DNA from: an uncultured Acidimicrobiia bacterium
GTDB lineage: Bacteria > Actinomycetota > Acidimicrobiia > Acidimicrobiales > AC-14
Reading direction: 5' to 3'
Length of the DNA stretch: 64,000 nt
Assembly: GCA_963836205.1 (NCBI GenBank)
Contig: CAWIIV010000015.1
Span: 288,001-352,000, forward strand
Shown: piece after piece, positions 1 to 51,572 of the stretch
Layout: the number at the start of each line of letters is the position of its first letter
Position numbering within the stretch: the first letter of the stretch is position 1
Translations under genes and position numbers: made by a program
The notes under the pieces: generated by a model
What the model saw: the letters and a program-made list of their open reading frames with translations, nothing else
The model's database searches: none
What the model was told of the DNA's origin: nothing

Positions 1-259
1 GGGCGAGTGCTTTCTGTAGCCGGACCCGGTGCTCGCCCATGATGGCCGCGACCTTGTCGTCGGGAAGCGCGTTCCGCTGGGAGAGGGAGGAGAACCACAC
101 CTTGGCGTGACGCATGTCGGGATCGACCCTCACCCCCGTCACCGTCACCAGCCCCAGGCGCTCGTCGCCGATCAGCTCCAACTCGTCGGCCACCACCTCC
201 TGCACCGCGTGGTTGACCCGGTCGAGGCGCCCCGGGCGACGCTTGCTCTGATCAGGCAT
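1..259 (-). CDS. rbfA: Ribosome-binding factor A (5' part; runs off the window edge)
   Basis: Manual translation from ATG 259: MPDQSKRRPGRLDRVNHAVQEVVADELERIGDERLGLVTVTGVRVDPDMRHAKVWFS; canonical position after infB-DUF503. Confidence 0.9.
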   Translation of the reverse strand, partial: MPDQSKRRPGRLDRVNHAVQEVVADELELIGDERLGLVTVTGVRVDPDMRHAKVWFSSLSQRNALPDDKVAAIMGEHRVRLQKALA

Positions 260-273
260 TGGGCTTGCTCTGG

Positions 274-567
274 TCAGGCACCGGTTGGCACCCACTCCGT
301 CTCGAACCGGCACACCTCGACGTCGGGCCGGCTCCACACCCACCGCTCCACCGACTCGACCACCTCCTGGGCGTGGCCCGCGGTGGCCGACACCACCGCC
401 ACTCCCACCTCGGCCCGCTGCCACTTGTCCTGGAAGTCGGTCTCGGCAACGGAGAGCGAGAACTTGTGGCGCAGCCCCTCCACGATCGGCTTGAGCACGG
501 CCCGCTTCTCCTTCAACGAGCGCGCCGAAGGGATGTGGAGCTCGATGCGTATGACTGCGACGTGCAT
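274..567 (-). CDS. DUF503 (YlxP) family protein
   Basis: MHVAVIRIELHIPSARSLKEKRAVLKPIVEGLRHKFSLSVAE; lies between infB and rbfA. Confidence 0.9.
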   Translation of the reverse strand: MHVAVIRIELHIPSARSLKEKRAVLKPIVEGLRHKFSLSVAETDFQDKWQRAEVGVAVVSATAGHAQEVVESVERWVWSRPDVEVCRFETEWVPTGA

Positions 568-572
568 GAGAA

Positions 573-4298
<3,726 letters not shown>

Positions 4299-8459: not shown

Positions 8460-9178
8460 GGTCGTCTCCTTGTCGGGCCTGCGGTTTTGGAGCGAGTGGC
8501 GCCGAGCCGCACGCAACAGCTCTGCTCGTCGGGCTGGAGTCGGGCGGTGTACGGGCGTCCGGGAAGGGCCCGGGCGAAGCCGTCGAGCAGGGCCAGGTTC
8601 ATGCCGCACACCAACGGCCGGTGGTCGACCACCAGGGCGTGGAACGGGCAGTTGGCCAGGGCGACCTCCCCGCCGTCGGCGACCGGCTCGTAGCCATTGT
8701 CGGCCAGCACGCCGATGACGTCGAGGGCGTCGCCGTCAGCACCCGTCGCCGAGGCCTCGGTGGCCAGCGCCGCCCCCCGGGCCCGCGCCAGGCGGACGAG
8801 GGCGGCGTCGACCGCCTCCCCCGTGGCTGTCGACTCGTGCACCGCGGCGGCAAGCAGCGACGCGGCCAGGTCGTAGTGCCGCGGCGGAAGGCTGACGGCG
8901 ACGTCAGCGTCTGCTCGCCGGTAGAGCTTCGTCGGACGTCCCCCGCCCCGCCCCGGTCGGCTCCCGAGGCGGCGGAACTCGACGTCGAGCAGCCTGTCGT
9001 CGACGAGCCGGTCGAGGTGGAAGGCGGCTGCGGCCCGGGTCACGCCGGTGGCCTCGGCCGCCTCCGCCCGGCTGACGGCCCGGTGCTGCCCGGCCACGAA
9101 CCGGTAGAGGGACCGGCGGAGGCGGTCGCCCAGGGCGGCCACCGCCGCCAGCCGGTCGTCGCCGTCTCGCTCGCCCAC
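8456..9178 (-). CDS. ArsR-like/SufR-type HTH transcriptional regulator with Cys-containing C-domain
   Basis: AAAFHLDRLV, GRPTKLY, PPRHYDLA, NCPFH...VCGMN...CC; TACGAT 6 nt before the GTG start. Confidence 0.88.
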   Translation of the reverse strand: MGERDGDDRLAAVAALGDRLRRSLYRFVAGQHRAVSRAEAAEATGVTRAAAAFHLDRLVDDRLLDVEFRRLGSRPGRGGGRPTKLYRRADADVAVSLPPRHYDLAASLLAAAVHESTATGEAVDAALVRLARARGAALATEASATGADGDALDVIGVLADNGYEPVADGGEVALANCPFHALVVDHRPLVCGMNLALLDGFARALPGRPYTARLQPDEQSCCVRLGATRSKTAGPTRRRP

Positions 9179-9233
9179 GGGCGCATCGTATCGTCTAAAG
9201 TCGAGAGTTACATGCGTTAGAAGGAGACCACGA

Positions 9234-9413
9234 GTGAGCGCACCGGCGATCCCGATCACGCCCTCCGGCCACGATGGCCTCGACGTCCACCAGGCCGAGC
9301 GGGCGGTGCGTGACCTGTTGGTCGCCCTCGGCCAGGACCCGTCCTCCGAGCTCCTGCGCGACGACGCCCGCTCCCGGGCCGAGTTCCTCGCCCTCGCCGG
9401 GAATCGCTCCTGA
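9234..9413 (+). pseudogene. folE: GTP cyclohydrolase I remnant with in-frame internal deletion (59 aa)
   Basis: AAGGAG RBS; FolE N-terminus (AERAVRDLLVALGQDPSSE) joined directly to FolE C-terminus (LLRDDARSRAEFLALA). Confidence 0.8.
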
Positions 9414-9421
9414 CCAGGGGC

Positions 9422-9449
9422 TCAAGTTTTTCGCGCCTCCCACCGACAA
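9422..9449 (+). promoter_or_regulatory. Putative WhiG/sigma28-type promoter of the ECF sigma gene
   Basis: TCAA-N16-ACCGACAA versus TAAA-N16-GCCGATAA; 7 nt before GTG 9457. Confidence 0.5.
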
Positions 9450-9456
9450 CCGGGGC

Positions 9457-10020
9457 GTGGCGCTGGATCAGGCTTTCGATCGGATCCTCTCGGCGGCCCG
9501 CAACGACGCCGGGTGGGCATACGACAGGCTCTACCGCGACCTGGCCCCGTCGGTGTGCGGGTACTTCCGGGTGCAGGGAGCACGGGACCCTGAGGACCTC
9601 ACCAACGAGGTCTTCCTGGGCGCCTTCCGGGGCCTGACCGGCTTCTCCGGGGGCGAGGACCAGTTTCGTTCGTGGGTGTTCACCATCGCCCACCGCCGGC
9701 TCACCGACGATCGGCGGCAGGCCGCCATCCGTCCGCCGCTGGCCGGCTTCCACGACGACGACCGTGACGAGGACGACCTCTACGGTGGCGACGCCGAGGA
9801 GGACGCTCTCCGGCGGATGAGCGCGGCGCGGGTGCGAACCCTGTGCGACACGCTCTCCCACGACCAGCGGGACGTGCTTCTCCTCCGCCTGGTGTCGGAC
9901 ATGACCGTCGACGCCGTCGCCGTCGCCCTCGACAAGACGCCGGGCGCGGTCAAGGCCCTGCAGCGGAGGGCGCTCACCGCCCTGCGCCAGAACCTGGTGC
10001 GGGAGGGCGTACCCATCTGA
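9457..10020 (+). CDS. ECF sigma-70 factor
   Basis: PEDLTNEVFLGAF, FRSWVFTIAHRR (region 2); DQRDVLLLR...GAVKALQRRAL (region 4). Confidence 0.93.
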   Translation: MALDQAFDRILSAARNDAGWAYDRLYRDLAPSVCGYFRVQGARDPEDLTNEVFLGAFRGLTGFSGGEDQFRSWVFTIAHRRLTDDRRQAAIRPPLAGFHDDDRDEDDLYGGDAEEDALRRMSAARVRTLCDTLSHDQRDVLLLRLVSDMTVDAVAVALDKTPGAVKALQRRALTALRQNLVREGVPI

Positions 10021-10046
10021 GCCATCCCGACGATCACCACGACGAG

Positions 10047-11366
10047 ATGCCCGACGACCTCATCCCGGATGATCTGGACGACCTTCCCTGGTTGGTCCCG
10101 TTCGTCCAGGACGTGCGCTTCGCCAGCAGTGGGCCGGTCCCCAGACCGAACCCGCAGCTGGCCGCCATCTTCGAGACGTCGGGTCTCTCCAACGACAAAG
10201 GCGACCTGCTGGCGACAGCAGCAAGCAACGTCCACGGGCCTGCGCCGCAGGCGGCCGGACTACCGAACTGGAGAAAGGAAACCTCAATGCCCCTTACGTT
10301 TCTCTCGGCGATGATCGCCAAGATCACCGGAGCAGGAGCAGCGGCCAAGGCCGCAGTCGCGACTGTTACCGCATTCGCAACCATGACCGTCGCCGGCGCC
10401 GCCGCCGGCGTCCTGCCCGAACCCATCCAGGGTGCCGTCGGCGGGGCCATCAACGCCATCAGCCCGCTGAACGTGCCCACCGGAGACCCGGCCGACACCG
10501 TCAGCGCGGCCACCGACCTGGTGAACGGCGTCGTCGGGTCCGTCCCGTCGCTGCCCGGCGCGTCCGGGGACCTGCCGGTCTCGGCCGACGCCACCGTGGG
10601 GACGCCCGCCGGCACCGTGTCGGTCGGAACGTCGGGCATCACCCTGCCCTCCATCCCCGACGTCACCATCCCCGACATCCCCACCCTCCCCAACCTGCCC
10701 GACCTCTCCAACATCCCGCTCCCCGCCCTTCCCGACGTCGGCCCGATCATCGACAACCTGCCGGTGCAGCTGCCGGCCTGCGTGAAGAGCCTGCTCCCGA
10801 CGTCCGGGGCGCTTCCCAACCCGACCGCCCTCGTGGCCCAGATCCCGACCTGCATCCAGACCGTGCTGGCCACCACCAACCTGCCGGTGAACGTGGCCGG
10901 CTGCGTGGCCTCGGTGCTGGGCACGGTGTCCGGCGTGCTGAACCCGGCCGGCCTCGGTAGCCTGCCCCAGCTCGACATCTCGGACTGCGCGCCGCTCGAC
11001 GTCAGCCACTGCACGACCAACGTGCTGGCCGCCACCGGCGTGTCCAATGTGCCCTTCGTGGGCGATCTGATGGAGTCGGTCTACGGCAGCTTCGGCAACT
11101 CGGTCGGAGGCGGCTTCAGCTTCCTCGGCATCAGCTTCAACTTCAACGTGCCGGGCCTGAACGCCATCCCCGCCGGATGCGTCCCGATCGACATCTCCCA
11201 GTGCCTCACCTCGGTGACCGGCAGCCTGGGTACCCTCCCGTCGACCGGCGCCGTGCCCCAGGTCGACCTGTCGGCCTGCATGCCGACCGGCCTCACCTCC
11301 GGCATCCCGGGTGTGGGTGGCGGAATCCCCGGCCTGAGCGGGATCCCCTTCTTCCCCTTCACGTAG
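10047..11366 (+). CDS. Putative anti-sigma-like membrane/secreted protein with Cys-containing repeats; internal start at 10287
   Basis: Directly follows the ECF gene; short N-domain, Ala-rich hydrophobic stretch (AAAGVLP), Pro/Leu-rich C-terminus; GAAAGGA RBS before ATG 10287. Confidence 0.7.
   Translation: MPDDLIPDDLDDLPWLVPFVQDVRFASSGPVPRPNPQLAAIFETSGLSNDKGDLLATAASNVHGPAPQAAGLPNWRKETSMPLTFLSAMIAKITGAGAAAKAAVATVTAFATMTVAGAAAGVLPEPIQGAVGGAINAISPLNVPTGDPADTVSAATDLVNGVVGSVPSLPGASGDLPVSADATVGTPAGTVSVGTSGITLPSIPDVTIPDIPTLPNLPDLSNIPLPALPDVGPIIDNLPVQLPACVKSLLPTSGALPNPTALVAQIPTCIQTVLATTNLPVNVAGCVASVLGTVSGVLNPAGLGSLPQLDISDCAPLDVSHCTTNVLAATGVSNVPFVGDLMESVYGSFGNSVGGGFSFLGISFNFNVPGLNAIPAGCVPIDISQCLTSVTGSLGTLPSTGAVPQVDLSACMPTGLTSGIPGVGGGIPGLSGIPFFPFT
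10195..10268 (+). ncRNA. c-di-GMP-I (GEMM)-like riboswitch variant embedded in the CDS
   Basis: AAAGGCGAC-CTGCTG(GCGA)CAGCAG-CAAGCAACG-TCCACGGGCCT...AGGCGGCCGGACTACCGA aligns by eye with GEMM-I, including the GNRA-capped P2 and G20/A47/C92 equivalents. Confidence 0.7.
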
Positions 11367-11386
11367 CCCAACCTTCAAGCGGCGCT

Positions 11387-11429
11387 CGAGGTCCCGCAGC
11401 CGGCCCCACGGTCCGGCGGCGGGACCTCG
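11387..11429. terminator. GC-rich hairpin between convergent genes
   Basis: CGAGGTCCCGC ... GCGGGACCTCG perfect 11-bp arms. Confidence 0.6.
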
Positions 11430-11448
11430 CCGCGTCCTGGGTCGGCCG

Positions 11449-12210
11449 TCAGGCCCGGGTCGCCACCATGGTGAGGCGGACGTAGTCGAGCGAGCAGGCG
11501 GGGAGGAGGGTGGTCACCCCGTCGAGGAGGGGCCGGCGTCGGGCCTCGGGGACGCGGTCGAGGTGCATGCGCAGGACCACCGTGGCCAGGAACGTCCGGA
11601 GGGCGTCGGTGCTCTCGAACGGCGTGGGCTCGTCGTGCAGCCAGGCGTCGGTGTCGACGAAGCCGGCCGCCTCCAGCCGGCGGACGGTCTCGGCAGGCGT
11701 GGCGAACAGCCACGGGAAGGGTTCGGACTGGCCCAGGGCCCGGAGGGCGTCGACGACGGTGGCGATGTTGCCGGCGCCGCCACATTGGGCCACCAGCCGG
11801 CCGCCGGGGCGGAGGACCGCGGCCAGGTGGGTGAACAGGCGGTCGTGGTCGAGGACCCAGTGGAAGGCGGCGGTGGAGACGACGGCGTCAACGGGCACAG
11901 CCACGGGCAACGGCTGGGCCAGGTCGGCCTCCACCAGCTCGACCCGGTCGCCGAACCGGGCCAGGCGGGCGCCGGCCTCCGCCAGCATCGACGGGGCCGC
12001 GTCGAGGGCGACCACCGTGACCCCCGGGAAACGGTCGAGCAGCTCCTCGGTGACGCGGCCGCTGCCGCAACCGGCGTCGAGCACCCGTTCGCCGCCCACG
12101 AGCTGGAGCCGGTCGAGCACCGCGCTCCCCCACCGGGCCTGGGGGTGGGCGATGCGGTCGTAGGTGGCGCCGTCCCAGTCGCCCGGCGGGCCCGGTTCCT
12201 GCGCCGTCAC
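11449..12210 (-). CDS. Class I SAM-dependent methyltransferase (trans-aconitate methyltransferase-like)
   Basis: VLDAGCGSG, VVSTAAFHWV, LDYVRL. Confidence 0.88.
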   Translation of the reverse strand: MTAQEPGPPGDWDGATYDRIAHPQARWGSAVLDRLQLVGGERVLDAGCGSGRVTEELLDRFPGVTVVALDAAPSMLAEAGARLARFGDRVELVEADLAQPLPVAVPVDAVVSTAAFHWVLDHDRLFTHLAAVLRPGGRLVAQCGGAGNIATVVDALRALGQSEPFPWLFATPAETVRRLEAAGFVDTDAWLHDEPTPFESTDALRTFLATVVLRMHLDRVPEARRRPLLDGVTTLLPACSLDYVRLTMVATRA

Positions 12211-48750: not shown

Positions 48751-49617
48751 CTAGCGCCGGGCGGGCTCCCGCAATCCGGCGAACAGGTCGTCTTCGGGGA
48801 CGGGTGCGTCGACCACCGACCGGGCCAGGATGTAATCGTCGTACGGGTAGGCGTTGCCGGCCTCGGACGGGAGCCCGAACCAGAACGGCGACGCCGGGTC
48901 GACCTGGGTGGCGTGGGCGAGGAGGGCGGCGTCGCGGATGTCGTCCTCGGGGAGGACGTCGATCCGGGTCGTGATCCGGTCGTCGAGGCCGGGGCGCGCC
49001 AGCCACTCGTCGGTGAACGGCGACTCCAGCCCCAGCTCGAGGAACTTCTCGTGCAGTGCCACCAGCCGGGCCTTGGCCCACGCCGAGTAGTACATCTTCG
49101 ACGGCTGCCAGGGCGGGCCGGCGTCGGGGTAGCGGTCGGGGTCGCCGGCGGCGTCGAAGGCCACCACGCTGATGTCGTGGACCCGCAGGTGGTCGGGGTG
49201 GGGGTAGCCGTCCTGGTCGTCGGCGTAGGTGACGATCACCTGCGGCCGTTCCCGCCGGATCACCTCCACCAGCCGGCCGACGGCCTCGCCCAGATCGGCG
49301 ACGGCGAAGCACCCGGGACGGCGATTGGCCTCGGTGCCCGCCATCCCCGAGTCGCGGTAGCCGAGCATGACCACCTCGTGGTAGCCGATGATGCCCGCGG
49401 CCCGCTCGAGCTCCTCCAGTCGCACCTCGTGCAGGCGGTCCCGAACCTCGGGAAGGTCCATGGCCGGGTTGAGGATGTCGCCCTCCTCGCCGCCGGTGGC
49501 ACAGACGAGCACGCAGCGCACACCCTCCCGGGCGTAGCGGTGGACGGTGGCCGCCCCCTTGGACGATTCGTCGTCGGGGTGGGCGTGGACGGTGAGCAGG
49601 CGGAGGTCGGCGTCCAT
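48751..49617 (-). CDS. mca: Mycothiol conjugate amidase
   Basis: VHAHPDDESSKG, GYRDSGM, GYPHPDH, AHATQVDP, EDDLFAG. Confidence 0.93.
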   Translation of the reverse strand: MDADLRLLTVHAHPDDESSKGAATVHRYAREGVRCVLVCATGGEEGDILNPAMDLPEVRDRLHEVRLEELERAAGIIGYHEVVMLGYRDSGMAGTEANRRPGCFAVADLGEAVGRLVEVIRRERPQVIVTYADDQDGYPHPDHLRVHDISVVAFDAAGDPDRYPDAGPPWQPSKMYYSAWAKARLVALHEKFLELGLESPFTDEWLARPGLDDRITTRIDVLPEDDIRDAALLAHATQVDPASPFWFGLPSEAGNAYPYDDYILARSVVDAPVPEDDLFAGLREPARR

Positions 49618-51572
49618 TGGTAGTCAGGGGCGCGTTGCCGGCAAGGCCAGCACGTTTCCCCATCCCCCTTTCAATCCGTACGTGCGGTTTTCCCGCATAC
49701 GGCTTTCCGACGATCTTCTGGACATGGTTACGACGCCTTCGGGTAGCGAATGGTGCCCATGAGCTGATGCAGGCCCTGGCCGTGGAACCAGGTGCGGGTC
49801 CAGCAGTCTGCCTGGCCTGCCCGTAGGTTGCGGCCCCGCTTCTTGATGAGCAAGCGCTTGAGCCGCCACACGACGTGTCGGTCGAGGGAGACGAACTTAT
49901 TCGCCGCGTTGCCGGTGCGGAAGTAGTTGCCCCACCCCCGCAGGAACAGGTTGAGGTCGTAGATCACGTCCTCCAACTCCATGCCGACCCGGTTCCGGCC
50001 GGTGAGGGCCTTGACCCGCTGTCGTGCCCGCTTCATCGACCGCTGCGACGGCCAGCGGTGGAGGTAGTAGCGGATGACCCGCTGCTGTTCCCACAACCGG
50101 CCCGACATGCGGGCGTGAAGATGACAACCCAGGAAGTCGAAGCCCTCCTTGCCCTCCCGGAGGTCGACCACACGGGTCTTGTCCGGGTGCAGGCTCAGGC
50201 CGAGATCACCCAGCAGGGCCGCCGCCCTGGCCTGGGCCGTCTCGGCCTGGCTGCGGGTCGTGCACAGCACCACGAAGTCGTCCGCGTAACGGACGAGCTC
50301 GCCGGTGCCGGACTCGGCCCAGGACCGGTCGAAGGCGTGCAGGTAGATGTTGGCCAGCAGCGGGGAGATGACCCCGCCCTGGGGCGTGCCCGTGACCGTC
50401 TCGGAGCGCACCCCCTCGACCAGCACCCCGGCACGCAGCCACTGGCGGATGAGCTTGAGCACCCGCCGGTCCGACACGCGCTCGCCGACCAGTGACAGCA
50501 GCCTGTCGTGGTCGATCTGGCCGAAGAAGTCGCGGATGTCGGCCTCGAAGACGAACTGCCGTCCTCGGGGGAAGGACACCCGGATGGCTTCCAGGGCGTC
50601 GGTGGCCGACCGCTTCGGGCGGAACCCGAAGTCTGGTCGGCAGGAAGTCGGCCTCGAAGATGGGTTCGAGGACGATCTTGGCTGCCGCCTGGCACACCCG
50701 GTCGCGCACGGTGGGGATGCCCAGGGGCCGCATCCGGCCGTCGGGCTTGGGGATCTCCACCCGCCGAACAGGCGACGGGCGGTAGGTGCCTGCACGGAGG
50801 TCACGGGAAAGCTCGTCGAGCACGCGCCCGACCCCGTAGTCCTCCACCGCCTCCAGGGTCAGTCGATCGACCCCGGCGGCGCCACGATTGGCTCGCACCC
50901 GCTCCCACGCCGTCCACAGCACGTCACTGCGGTGGATTCGGTCGAACAGGGCGTGGAAGCGGCGACCCGGAGACTGCTTGGCCGCAGCCCATAGCCGGTT
51001 CTGGAGTTTTCGCACGTTGTCGGTGGGCGGCTGCCCGCCGGGGGAGTTGGGCCGGGCGTTCCCGGCCATGCCCTGGCGCTTACTTCCGTCTCCGGCGTGA
51101 CCGAAGTCGGGGCCCTTCCCTCCCGCCGGGTTCATCCCGGCGATCAGCGGTACTACGACCCCGTCGGACTCCCGCTGCGCTCCGCTCGATTTCACCACTG
51201 GCTTATACGAGCGGTCTTTGCTGACGAGGCTGCGCAGACGGGTCTCTCCTGTTCCGAACCTGACCGTGCGTACGTGCCGCTCCCCGTACCCCGAGGGGAC
51301 CCGACCAGGGGCGTGTCCGGAACGCCAGTCGGTCGGACGTGGCCTTCGCCGTGACATGAGCGGCTCGGCTCCCCCGTTGTGCGTTTGACGAGGCTGCAGG
51401 ACTCGCGCCTGGTGGCACTACGGCCCGCACGCTTGCTCCCTCCAAAGAGGCTCTTGACGCCCCGCTCAGCCCGCCGCCTCTCGGCGACGAACCGGGGCCT
51501 GCTACCGGGCTCTCCGGCGATTACCCGGGCGGGACTCGCACCCGCTGGTCTGGTCCAGTTCTCAGGACGCAA
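49615..51572 (-). mobile_element. Group II intron inserted at the mca start codon (exact register ambiguous because ATG flanks both ends)
   Basis: 5' TTGCGTCCTGAG; domain V AAAGCCGTATGCGGGAAAACCGCACGTACGGATT; domain VI ending CCCTGACTACCAATG; internal RT ORF. Confidence 0.92.
49728..51069 (-). pseudogene. ltrA: Group II intron reverse transcriptase/maturase without endonuclease domain; +1 frameshift near 50632
   Basis: RPLGIPTVRDR, GFRP, GTPQGGVISPLLANIYL, YADD, GWGNYF; ACC AGAC TTC where ACC AGC TTC is expected. Confidence 0.9.

Follow-up and report, generated by a model that had tools for sequence, protein, structure and literature searches.

The locus described here lies in a window of 64,000 nucleotides (nt) from an uncultured Acidimicrobiia bacterium (assembly GCA_963836205.1, contig CAWIIV010000015.1, positions 288,001 to 352,000); by the window we mean this whole stretch, to whose first letter all positions refer. 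Two genes follow one another on its forward strand, a gene for a sigma factor of the extracytoplasmic function (ECF) type and a long open reading frame (ORF) that opens 26 nt past the sigma stop codon and codes for a putative transmembrane anti-sigma factor. Inside the second frame lies an RNA element that resembles the GEMM-I aptamer, the ligand-binding part of the riboswitches for cyclic di-guanosine monophosphate (c-di-GMP), followed by a ribosome-binding site and an internal in-frame ATG. The initial annotation of the window, made from its letters alone, had pointed out this in-frame GEMM-I-like element, an observation that our analysis confirmed, and had proposed that it gates the internal start. 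The features of the locus and the evidence for each are the following.

9457 to 10020, forward strand: ECF sigma factor gene, with a probable GTG start at 9457 and its stop codon at 10018-10020 (Pfam Sigma70_r2 and Sigma70_r4).
10047 to 11366, forward strand: long ORF of 439 amino acids (aa) plus stop, transmembrane anti-sigma-like (ORF table; full-length in-frame homologues).
10047 to 10187, forward strand: N-domain of 47 aa, predicted to bind sigma; GAG precedes its ATG (conserved start, coding signature, complex model).
10184 to 10192, forward strand: 5′ strand of the extended P1 stem, a putative anti-Shine-Dalgarno sequence, TCTCTCCAA, which also codes for G-L-S-N (minimum free energy fold, duplex energies, pair counts).
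10191 to 10268, forward strand: GEMM-I-like aptamer, coding for residues 49-74 of the long protein (match to Rfam family RF03167, match to our covariance model R1, covariation).
10201 to 10226, forward strand: P2, with outer GC/GC pairs, a 6-bp stem of 10206-10211 with 10216-10221, and the GNRA loop GCGA (pair counts on a MAFFT alignment).
10229 to 10261, forward strand: P3 hairpin with a 2-nt bulge at 10253-10254 (pair counts on a MAFFT alignment).
10268 to 10276, forward strand: 3′ strand of the extended P1 stem, CTGGAGAAA, which holds the Shine-Dalgarno sequence GGAG at 10270-10273 (GGAG conservation, pairing).
10287 to 11366, forward strand: short ORF of 359 aa plus stop, with a transmembrane or signal segment and an extracytoplasmic Cys-rich domain (internal in-frame ATG).
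10338 to 10415, forward strand: hydrophobic segment, probably a transmembrane (TM) helix, limits approximate (inferred from the translation).

The frame of ATG 10047 runs uninterrupted to the stop codon at 11364-11366 and reads DKGDLLATAASNVHGPAPQAAGLPNW. Its parts come in the order N-domain, aptamer-coded linker, TM helix and extracytoplasmic domain; a low-confidence model of the short form places a helix at residues 18-40. The aptamer shows GGC at 10200-10202, the P2 strands CTGCTG (10206-10211) and CAGCAG (10216-10221) around the GCGA loop, and CTACCGA at 10260-10266, and on its 3′ side come GGAG (10270-10273), AAGGA (10275-10279) and ATG 10287. The description of a GEMM-I-like fold followed by a strong ribosome-binding site and an in-frame ATG was accordingly accurate. 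In a permissive scan of 10000-10400, RF03167 (c-di-GMP-I-GGC) aligned with 10191-10268 over model positions 1-80 of 80 at 33.8 bits (E 2.5e-6) and was the top member in clan competition at that score; across the 4.05-Mb genome this match is unique (E 6e-6). The covariance-model search thus yielded a full-length match, which stayed below the gathering threshold, and this is why the standard scan was blank at the aptamer: at gathering thresholds Rfam reported no riboswitch in the whole window and only two matches, both to group II intron families. We conclude that the element, judged from these alignments, is a real relative of c-di-GMP-I, yet sub-threshold for both Rfam families, RF03167 and RF01051. 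The available text of PMC4744006 gives G20, A47 and C92 as the nucleotides of the Vc2 aptamer that contact the ligand. In the window, the positions aligned with them through the Rfam alignment, with the Vc2 numbering mapped by inspection, hold G, A and C, and under the same mapping they are invariant or nearly so in 43 aligned rows. Their intactness, claimed earlier, agrees with the RF03167 alignment, in which they are the unpaired G before a GC pair, the first A of GCAAC and the AC before the 3′ CG. The G that the RF03167 variant has at the A47 equivalent (consensus GCGAAG) was not found here, since the window reads GCAACG and has A at that position.

When 61 related genomes were searched with Rfam, 18 proved to contain the family, 7 of them above cut-off, and among these genomes a distinct, low-scoring subfamily (32-48 bits) emerged that includes the window copy. 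We built the covariance model R1 from 9 members of this subfamily; it hits the window at 10189-10270 with 102.9 bits. A further 56 loci were taken from species-representative genomes with peptide patterns of the aptamer-coded stretch and tblastn. R1 matched all 56, and the total came to 68 hits at 61 distinct loci, hosted mostly by metagenome-assembled genomes of Acidimicrobiia and also by Planosporangium flavigriseum, Quadrisphaera, Nitriliruptorales and Coriobacteriia. Two classes can be told apart. At 48 of the 61, the window included (class A), a conserved N-terminal peptide precedes the aptamer and a TM segment follows it in a single frame, while at the other 13 (class B) the RNA is the plain 5′ leader of a gene for a paralogous TM protein, and the frame upstream is either unrelated or closed. 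In 42 of the 48 class A loci, 151-280 nt separate the end of a sigma homologue from the aptamer; in one other the homologue lies 1.16 kb upstream, two lack it and three reach the end of their contig. No class B locus (0/13) has a same-strand sigma gene upstream of the aptamer. An unbiased nucleotide search of the 61 relatives returned 3 loci of the leader type besides 7 that were sigma-linked, and each of the latter was in frame. Judging from the loci collected, the in-frame arrangement is conserved in several classes of Actinomycetota, including the cultured Planosporangium.

Some individual loci deserve mention in their own right. L053 carries both forms on one contig: a leader-type aptamer (90-170) stands before an ORF of 184 aa, a sigma homologue occupies 876-1436, and the in-frame class A anti-sigma gene lies about 1.1 kb past that homologue, with its aptamer at 2598-2679. 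In L082, a sigma gene and an aptamer-less anti-sigma homologue (168-1711, reverse strand) are divergent from a leader-type aptamer gene (1862-1942, forward strand), and the aptamer-less homologue has the same N-domain and TM exit motif with an unrelated Pro/Arg-rich linker. The sigma homologue of L041 (1908-2471) contains one in-frame stop, possibly a sequencing error or the mark of a pseudogene, and the 5′ end of the class A gene downstream is intact. L059 and L060 keep the class A N-domain and aptamer intact and show no sigma homologue within 2.6 and 1.5 kb upstream, respectively; a remnant of the sigma 3′ end alone seems to be left before GAG-ATG.

The RNA structure is borne out by covariation. 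Over 57 distinct rows, 94.1% of the cells are paired and both sides have changed in 12 of 23 pairs; none of 500 shuffles matched this pairing and compensation, and slid controls paired at 14-49%. Class A alone (43 rows) gave 93.7% and both-side changes in 9 of 23 pairs. On a MAFFT alignment independent of R1 (43 of 46 loci), P2 is 97% paired with both-side changes in 4 of its 6 stem pairs, and P3 is 90.5% paired with such changes in 3 of 12; over the analyses, compensatory pairs in the P2 stem numbered 4-5 of 6, and its loop was GCGA or GUGA. The P1/P2/P3 architecture with a GNRA loop on P2 is thus supported by covariation, which is present in the coding and leader forms alike. The homologues keep base pairing through compensatory changes that alter amino acids. 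The central pair of P2, for example, is UA in 20 rows, CG in 17, UG in 4 and GC in 2, and since these compensating changes replace Leu by Pro, Ser or Arg, it is the RNA that dictates the peptide in P2. When R1 was run on 151 genomes across the phylum, a tally that includes the unpublished genomes G108, G179 and G207, which enter into no other claim, it matched in 24 of them, that is, in the own genome and in 23 of the 150 others, at 31-75 bits in the latter. The 24 places inspected beyond the own locus in this sample were canonical-looking GEMM-I or subfamily-like and were not classed as in-frame and sigma-linked. Because R1 also retrieves canonical-looking GEMM-I elements, we regard the subfamily as a GEMM-I relative, not a look-alike.

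If the long frame is translated, the aptamer should vary in ways that keep it open, and this is what the class A loci suggest. Their aptamer cores measure 64, 67, 70, 76 or 82 nt (one odd locus has 65), their spacers to the ATG 16, 19, 22, 25, 31 or 37 nt, and the P3 loop changes length by steps of three only. Counted to the ATG, the distance is 1 mod 3 from the 3′ anchor in 48/48 and 2 mod 3 from the 5′ anchor in 47/48. About nine non-modal length states each require at least one insertion or deletion, and every one is a multiple of three. In class B, cores of 61-66 nt and spacers of 3-18 nt fall into the three phases as 6/4/3, none preferred. Upstream of the aptamer, a GAG-ATG start at the equivalent of 10047 is found in 45 of the 46 class A loci that have upstream sequence, and the 39-65 codons before the aptamer have G+C fractions of 0.75/0.51/0.84 at the three codon positions; class B leaders (10 of 13 examined) are flat, with 0.63-0.69 in all three phases. 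Within the N-domain, differences fall preferentially on the third codon position (178/163/249; p 2e-5 over 14 independent pairs), like those of the outer domain. In 15 hand-picked close pairs, the ratio of nonsynonymous to synonymous substitution rates (dN/dS) of the N-domain was 0.2-0.9, with a median of about 0.5. The upstream frame, whose closure in homologues would have made this an ordinary leader, is thus open in the sigma-linked homologues, from a conserved GAG-ATG and with a coding-like composition.

The same close pairs reveal a second constraint on the aptamer. Across aptamer and spacer dS was 0-0.19, compared with 0.07-0.8 in the flanks, and it lay below both flanks in 15/15 pairs; the suppression covers loops and junctions besides stems. 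Substitutions over this stretch lack codon periodicity (37/44/56). Low dS together with absent codon periodicity is the signature of an RNA element that overlaps codons, and the suppressed synonymous variation anticipated for a dual-coded element was thus found. A profile of the N-domain only retrieved 757 representative proteins. Among the top 150, 26 have at least 4 of 5 aptamer-coded signature pieces and 112 have 0-1, and in about 40 inspected homologues without aptamer motifs the N-domain, linker and TM segment are continuous. This continuity argues that the long architecture is the family norm and that the aptamer occupies its linker. Lengths, start, coding signature, synonymous rate and aptamer-less homologues are five lines of evidence that, as far as sequence comparison goes, agree on translation of the long frame.

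The internal start is equally well conserved. GGAG stands 4-16 nt before the in-frame internal ATG in 48/48 class A loci, and in class B this ATG is the sole start; the class B paralogues show that the short protein can exist alone under the same RNA. By a crude pattern test, a juxtamembrane Met is present in 16/17 family members with the aptamer signature and in 20/45 without it. The GGAG of the window falls in the 3′ strand of the extended P1 stem. In class A the duplex of the P1 extension has a median energy of -11.9 kcal/mol, compared with -8.1 for shuffles and -6.4 for the neighbouring upstream segment, and its seven central pairs are paired in 74-100% of the rows. In clades whose Shine-Dalgarno sequence lies further downstream, an upstream CUUCUC or CUCCUC preserves the complementarity. 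Placing the Shine-Dalgarno sequence inside P1 is a usual design of a translational OFF switch, and the simplest reading of the P1 platform is that it acts as one for the internal start. The upstream start has a Shine-Dalgarno core in only 4/45 class A loci, and its context may point to translational coupling or to an unusual initiation signal; in the region 10021-10049 we also noted a conserved CGAT about 17 nt before GAG-ATG, the start itself lying about 26 nt past the sigma stop. A promoter scan of 9000-11700 found no sigma-70-type site; the scan does not cover ECF promoters.

Turning to the two proteins, the sigma factor scores above the cut-offs of Pfam (PF04542, 37.3 against 24; PF04545, 32.8 against 24.1) and of the NCBIfam family sigma70-ECF (TIGR02937, 68.7 against 42.9 bits), which places it among the ECF sigma factors. 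Its nearest named subfamilies, both sub-cut-off, are BldN (TIGR02952, 76.9 against 206 bits) and ShbA (NF007230, 82.9 against 209 bits). The closest solved relative is 6dxo_A (E 2.2e-28), an entry that we take to be BldN, although the text of the RsbN-BldN paper does not give the code 6dxo. We predicted the complex of sigma with the N-terminal part of the long protein from 30-row alignments and obtained scores of 0.77, 0.77 and 0.78 in three runs, the best control reaching 0.00; 58 of 80 solved complexes and 2 of 110 mismatched pairs reach the benchmark mark of this score. The partner has a pLDDT (per-residue model confidence) of at least 57, the runs share at least 64% of their contacts, and the modelled interface joins partner residues 10-46 to sigma residues 19-59 and 114-182, that is, regions 2 and 4, with the aptamer-coded residues 49-74 outside the confident interface. 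The model supports the notion that the N-terminal part binds sigma, between regions 2 and 4, and the claim to that effect in the initial annotation was borne out as a model prediction only. A profile search of the PDB with the N-terminal part found no anti-sigma chain at E<=10, and its matches to a designed repeat protein, an apolipoprotein and a ribosomal protein were taken as noise. The anti-sigma assignment thus draws on sigma adjacency in 42/48 loci, modelled sigma binding and a topology read from the sequence. A weak second match to the N-domain profile (E 5e-4) occurs in the own genome at C6:73360-73458 (L114), about 5 kb from a GGDEF gene at C6:67753-68220.

Taken together, these results suggest the following mechanism. 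The locus would be an ECF module made of a BldN/ShbA-like sigma factor and a single-pass transmembrane anti-sigma factor, with a stretch of 78-82 nt that is read as codons 49-74 and would fold as an aptamer on untranslated copies of the mRNA. The long isoform would be made from GAG-ATG 10047, perhaps by coupling to translation of the sigma gene, a possibility raised by the position of this start 26 nt past the sigma stop without an ordinary Shine-Dalgarno sequence, and would hold sigma at the membrane. The short isoform, made from 10287, would share the membrane and outer parts and be unable to bind sigma; the initial annotation called it exported, and it could equally be membrane-anchored. 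Ligand binding would stabilise P1, hide the Shine-Dalgarno sequence and shut off the short isoform, which low ligand would release, and in this way the balance between sigma-binding and sigma-blind protein would be governed by a second messenger, for which c-di-GMP is the simplest choice. As to what the short form does, one may speculate on a decoy, a partner or an independent surface protein. c-di-GMP is the leading candidate for the ligand, although several GEMM-I core positions differ, and the own genome has 6 GGDEF matches above the Pfam cut-off, which makes this ligand plausible. Sequence comparison carries the RNA structure, the coding nature of the long frame, the conserved internal start and the placement of the Shine-Dalgarno sequence in P1; the identity of the ligand, its closing of the internal start, the production of both isoforms and the role of the short one we infer. 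The interpretation put forward in the initial annotation is, with this division, supported: of the refuting conditions listed there, none that computation can address went against it.

We consider it probable, with considerable room for doubt, that the locus holds a translated riboswitch gating a short isoform of an ECF anti-sigma factor that is blind to sigma, and other explanations have to be weighed beside this account. The element could be an ordinary riboswitch in a 5′ untranslated region, in which case the gene would start at 10287, the 10047 frame would be open only through GC-rich DNA and the upstream region would be leader RNA. This alternative, already raised in the initial annotation, exists in exactly that form in 13/61 loci, never with a same-strand sigma gene upstream. 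Moreover, 6 of 53 database proteins begin at the internal Met, the upstream ATG lacks a Shine-Dalgarno core in 41/45 loci, and in the window the same frame is open even further upstream, from 9843. It does not sit well with the class A length variants, which are multiples of three in 48/48 loci, unlike the leader form, nor with the coding composition and third-position bias of the 47-aa region, when class B leaders are flat. The GAG-ATG conserved in 45/46 loci, the aptamer-less homologues that join the N-domain directly to the TM helix and the predicted sigma-binding interface, which falls in the 47-aa region, count against it too, and we think it improbable. Chance resemblance to GEMM-I in GC-rich coding sequence would fit the sub-gathering score and the folding z-score of -0.6 of the window; given an E-value of 6e-6 in the own genome, 61 loci with compensatory changes and the retrieval by R1 of canonical-looking GEMM-I elsewhere in the phylum (31-75 bits, in 23/150 other genomes), its likelihood is close to nil.

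A more serious contender, unlikely as we hold it to be, is that the sigma-linked genes have lost ligand sensing and keep the structure to slow ribosomes before the TM helix, to stabilise the mRNA or to tune the internal start constitutively. Changed GEMM-I core positions, sub-threshold Rfam scores and the many family members in which the aptamer has decayed or is missing (0-1 of 5 pieces in 112 of the top 150) speak for such a loss. Yet the junction nucleotides aligned with ligand contacts, and the unpaired core, are nearly invariant, the stems covary in the coding and leader forms, the leader-form paralogues resemble standard riboswitch-gene units, and dS is suppressed in loops and junctions as well as in stems. 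The ligand-bound aptamer could instead act on ribosomes elongating from 10047, through pausing, drop-off or frameshifting, and so control completion of the long protein. The aptamer does lie inside the translated frame, and most class A junctions 5′ of P2 read GAA-AAG-GGC, a heptamer of the shape X_XXY_YYZ (for example, L043 2612-2625). The heptamer is absent in the window, where the junction reads GAC-AAA-GGC, and we set it aside as a frameshift site for that reason; the conserved GGAG and ATG (48/48) and the Shine-Dalgarno sequence in P1 fit control of initiation. To our knowledge, no natural case of aptamer control over elongating ribosomes has been described, and we give this explanation little credence.

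Several observations nevertheless weigh against a translated, ligand-sensing riboswitch. The RF03167 match of 33.8 bits is under the gathering score of 59 bits, class A relatives reach 32-48 bits, and RF01051 (c-di-GMP-I, gathering score 35 bits) has no match at E<=10 in the own genome. With z = -0.6, the folding energy of 10180-10300 does not stand out, and thermodynamics by itself is uninformative. In its available text, PMC4744006 describes an interhelical Watson-Crick C-G pair as 'universally conserved' in GEMM riboswitches; its C is aligned, by inspection, with the position that precedes P2's closing GC, where 43/43 rows have A and the Rfam consensus has C. In the P2 internal loop, the 5′ side, A-rich in the GEMM-I consensus, reads GAC in the window. 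In view of these core deviations, the ligand could be another nucleotide signal, or binding could have been lost. The collection of loci by aptamer-coded peptide patterns favours in-frame loci, and the complex score is a model confidence to which solved ECF/anti-sigma complexes may contribute by likeness. The P1 extension keeps its complementarity with little true covariation (its 9-pair helix is 77% paired) and beats 95% of shuffles in only 23/48 loci. Finally, ribosomes coming from 10047 would unfold the aptamer, and this would limit its action to a shorter transcript or to mRNA that is sparsely translated.

The translated riboswitch that we favour combines known components in what appears to be a new way. 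Like Vc2 of Vibrio cholerae and the RF01051 and RF03167 families, the element has P2 and P3 on a short P1 and a GNRA loop on P2, and it has the junction motifs AAAGGC, GCAA and ACCGA and, by alignment, the three contact nucleotides listed in the available text of PMC4744006. Unlike GEMM-I, it has a P2 internal loop of GAC/CAA instead of AAA/GAC, C at the A49 equivalent and A at the position aligned by inspection with the interhelical C, it scores below both gathering thresholds, and it lies inside a translated reading frame. The protein pair recalls RsbN-BldN of Streptomyces venezuelae as described in the available text of PMC6101532, where the partner gene is directly downstream of sigma and RsbN crosses the membrane once, its short cytoplasmic N-region lying between sigma regions 2 and 4 and its large domain outside. 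According to the same text, RsbN is limited to Streptomyces and has a class III anti-sigma domain that consists of three helices, alpha-3 lying between regions 2 and 4. The cytoplasmic part at our locus has 80 aa, whereas that of RsbN has 117, and its N-terminal part, compared by sequence and not by fold, has no detectable similarity to any solved anti-sigma factor. In Streptomyces, that text continues, c-di-GMP controls BldN-RsbN through repression of both promoters by BldD; here the mRNA, instead of a repressor, would convey the effect of a second messenger.

Among other systems, the B12 riboswitches of Mycobacterium tuberculosis also bring translation and a riboswitch together on one stretch of mRNA, although the accessible part of PMC11260477 describes a short, separate upstream ORF, while here the whole aptamer is in frame in a conserved protein of 439 aa. 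The long and short forms of AerR (PMC6199135) are likewise two in-frame products of one gene, with and without an N-terminal regulatory part, and the portion of that paper at hand reports no ligand-sensing RNA at the internal start. RsiG-WhiG (PMC7005675) couples c-di-GMP to a sigma/anti-sigma pair of Actinomycetota, with an anti-sigma factor 'armed' by c-di-GMP; in the text available to us, the ligand binds the proteins, the sigma factor is of another family and no riboswitch is involved. Our literature searches, which did not cover supplementary files, found no description of an aptamer in frame within a protein-coding gene, nor of one in an anti-sigma gene. The components are known, namely a GEMM-I relative and an ECF sigma factor with a transmembrane anti-sigma factor; their combination, a translated aptamer that would gate an internal start, is new.

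Two further features of the window complete the description. The outer domain (10740-11300) has 10 Cys that are invariant in 19 sequences, in repeated C-x(3-7)-C and 'D-[VI]-S-x-C' contexts. Fold prediction from a 19-row alignment gave no confident fold (mean pLDDT 52.9; predicted template-modelling score 0.31). The domain has no family match, and the 439-aa protein as a whole matches no Pfam or NCBIfam family. The two Rfam matches above gathering score, Intron_gpII (42.6 bits) and group-II-D1D4-4 (91 bits), at 49600-49707 and 51413-51547 on the reverse strand, suggest that a group II intron lies some 40 kb downstream of the riboswitch locus.

Riboswitches are defined and sought as non-coding leader elements. 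Pipelines based on Rfam and screens of intergenic regions would miss the element, since it is sub-threshold and inside an annotated ORF, and the finding argues for scanning coding regions for sub-threshold relatives of riboswitches. The question is open to direct test, since Planosporangium flavigriseum TBRC 198 (L071), one of the carriers, is available in culture. That a natural aptamer doubles as linker codons and senses a cyclic dinucleotide to gate an internal start, wiring a second messenger into the choice between proteoforms of an ECF anti-sigma factor, is a broader proposition on which we are evenly divided. If it is true, an aptamer can survive the double constraint of an RNA fold and an open frame, with a peptide shaped by base pairing, and a riboswitch can choose between two proteoforms of one gene instead of turning the gene on or off. 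It would also mean that in these Actinomycetota signalling of the c-di-GMP type reaches, at the level of RNA, a pair of ECF sigma and anti-sigma factors related to BldN-RsbN.

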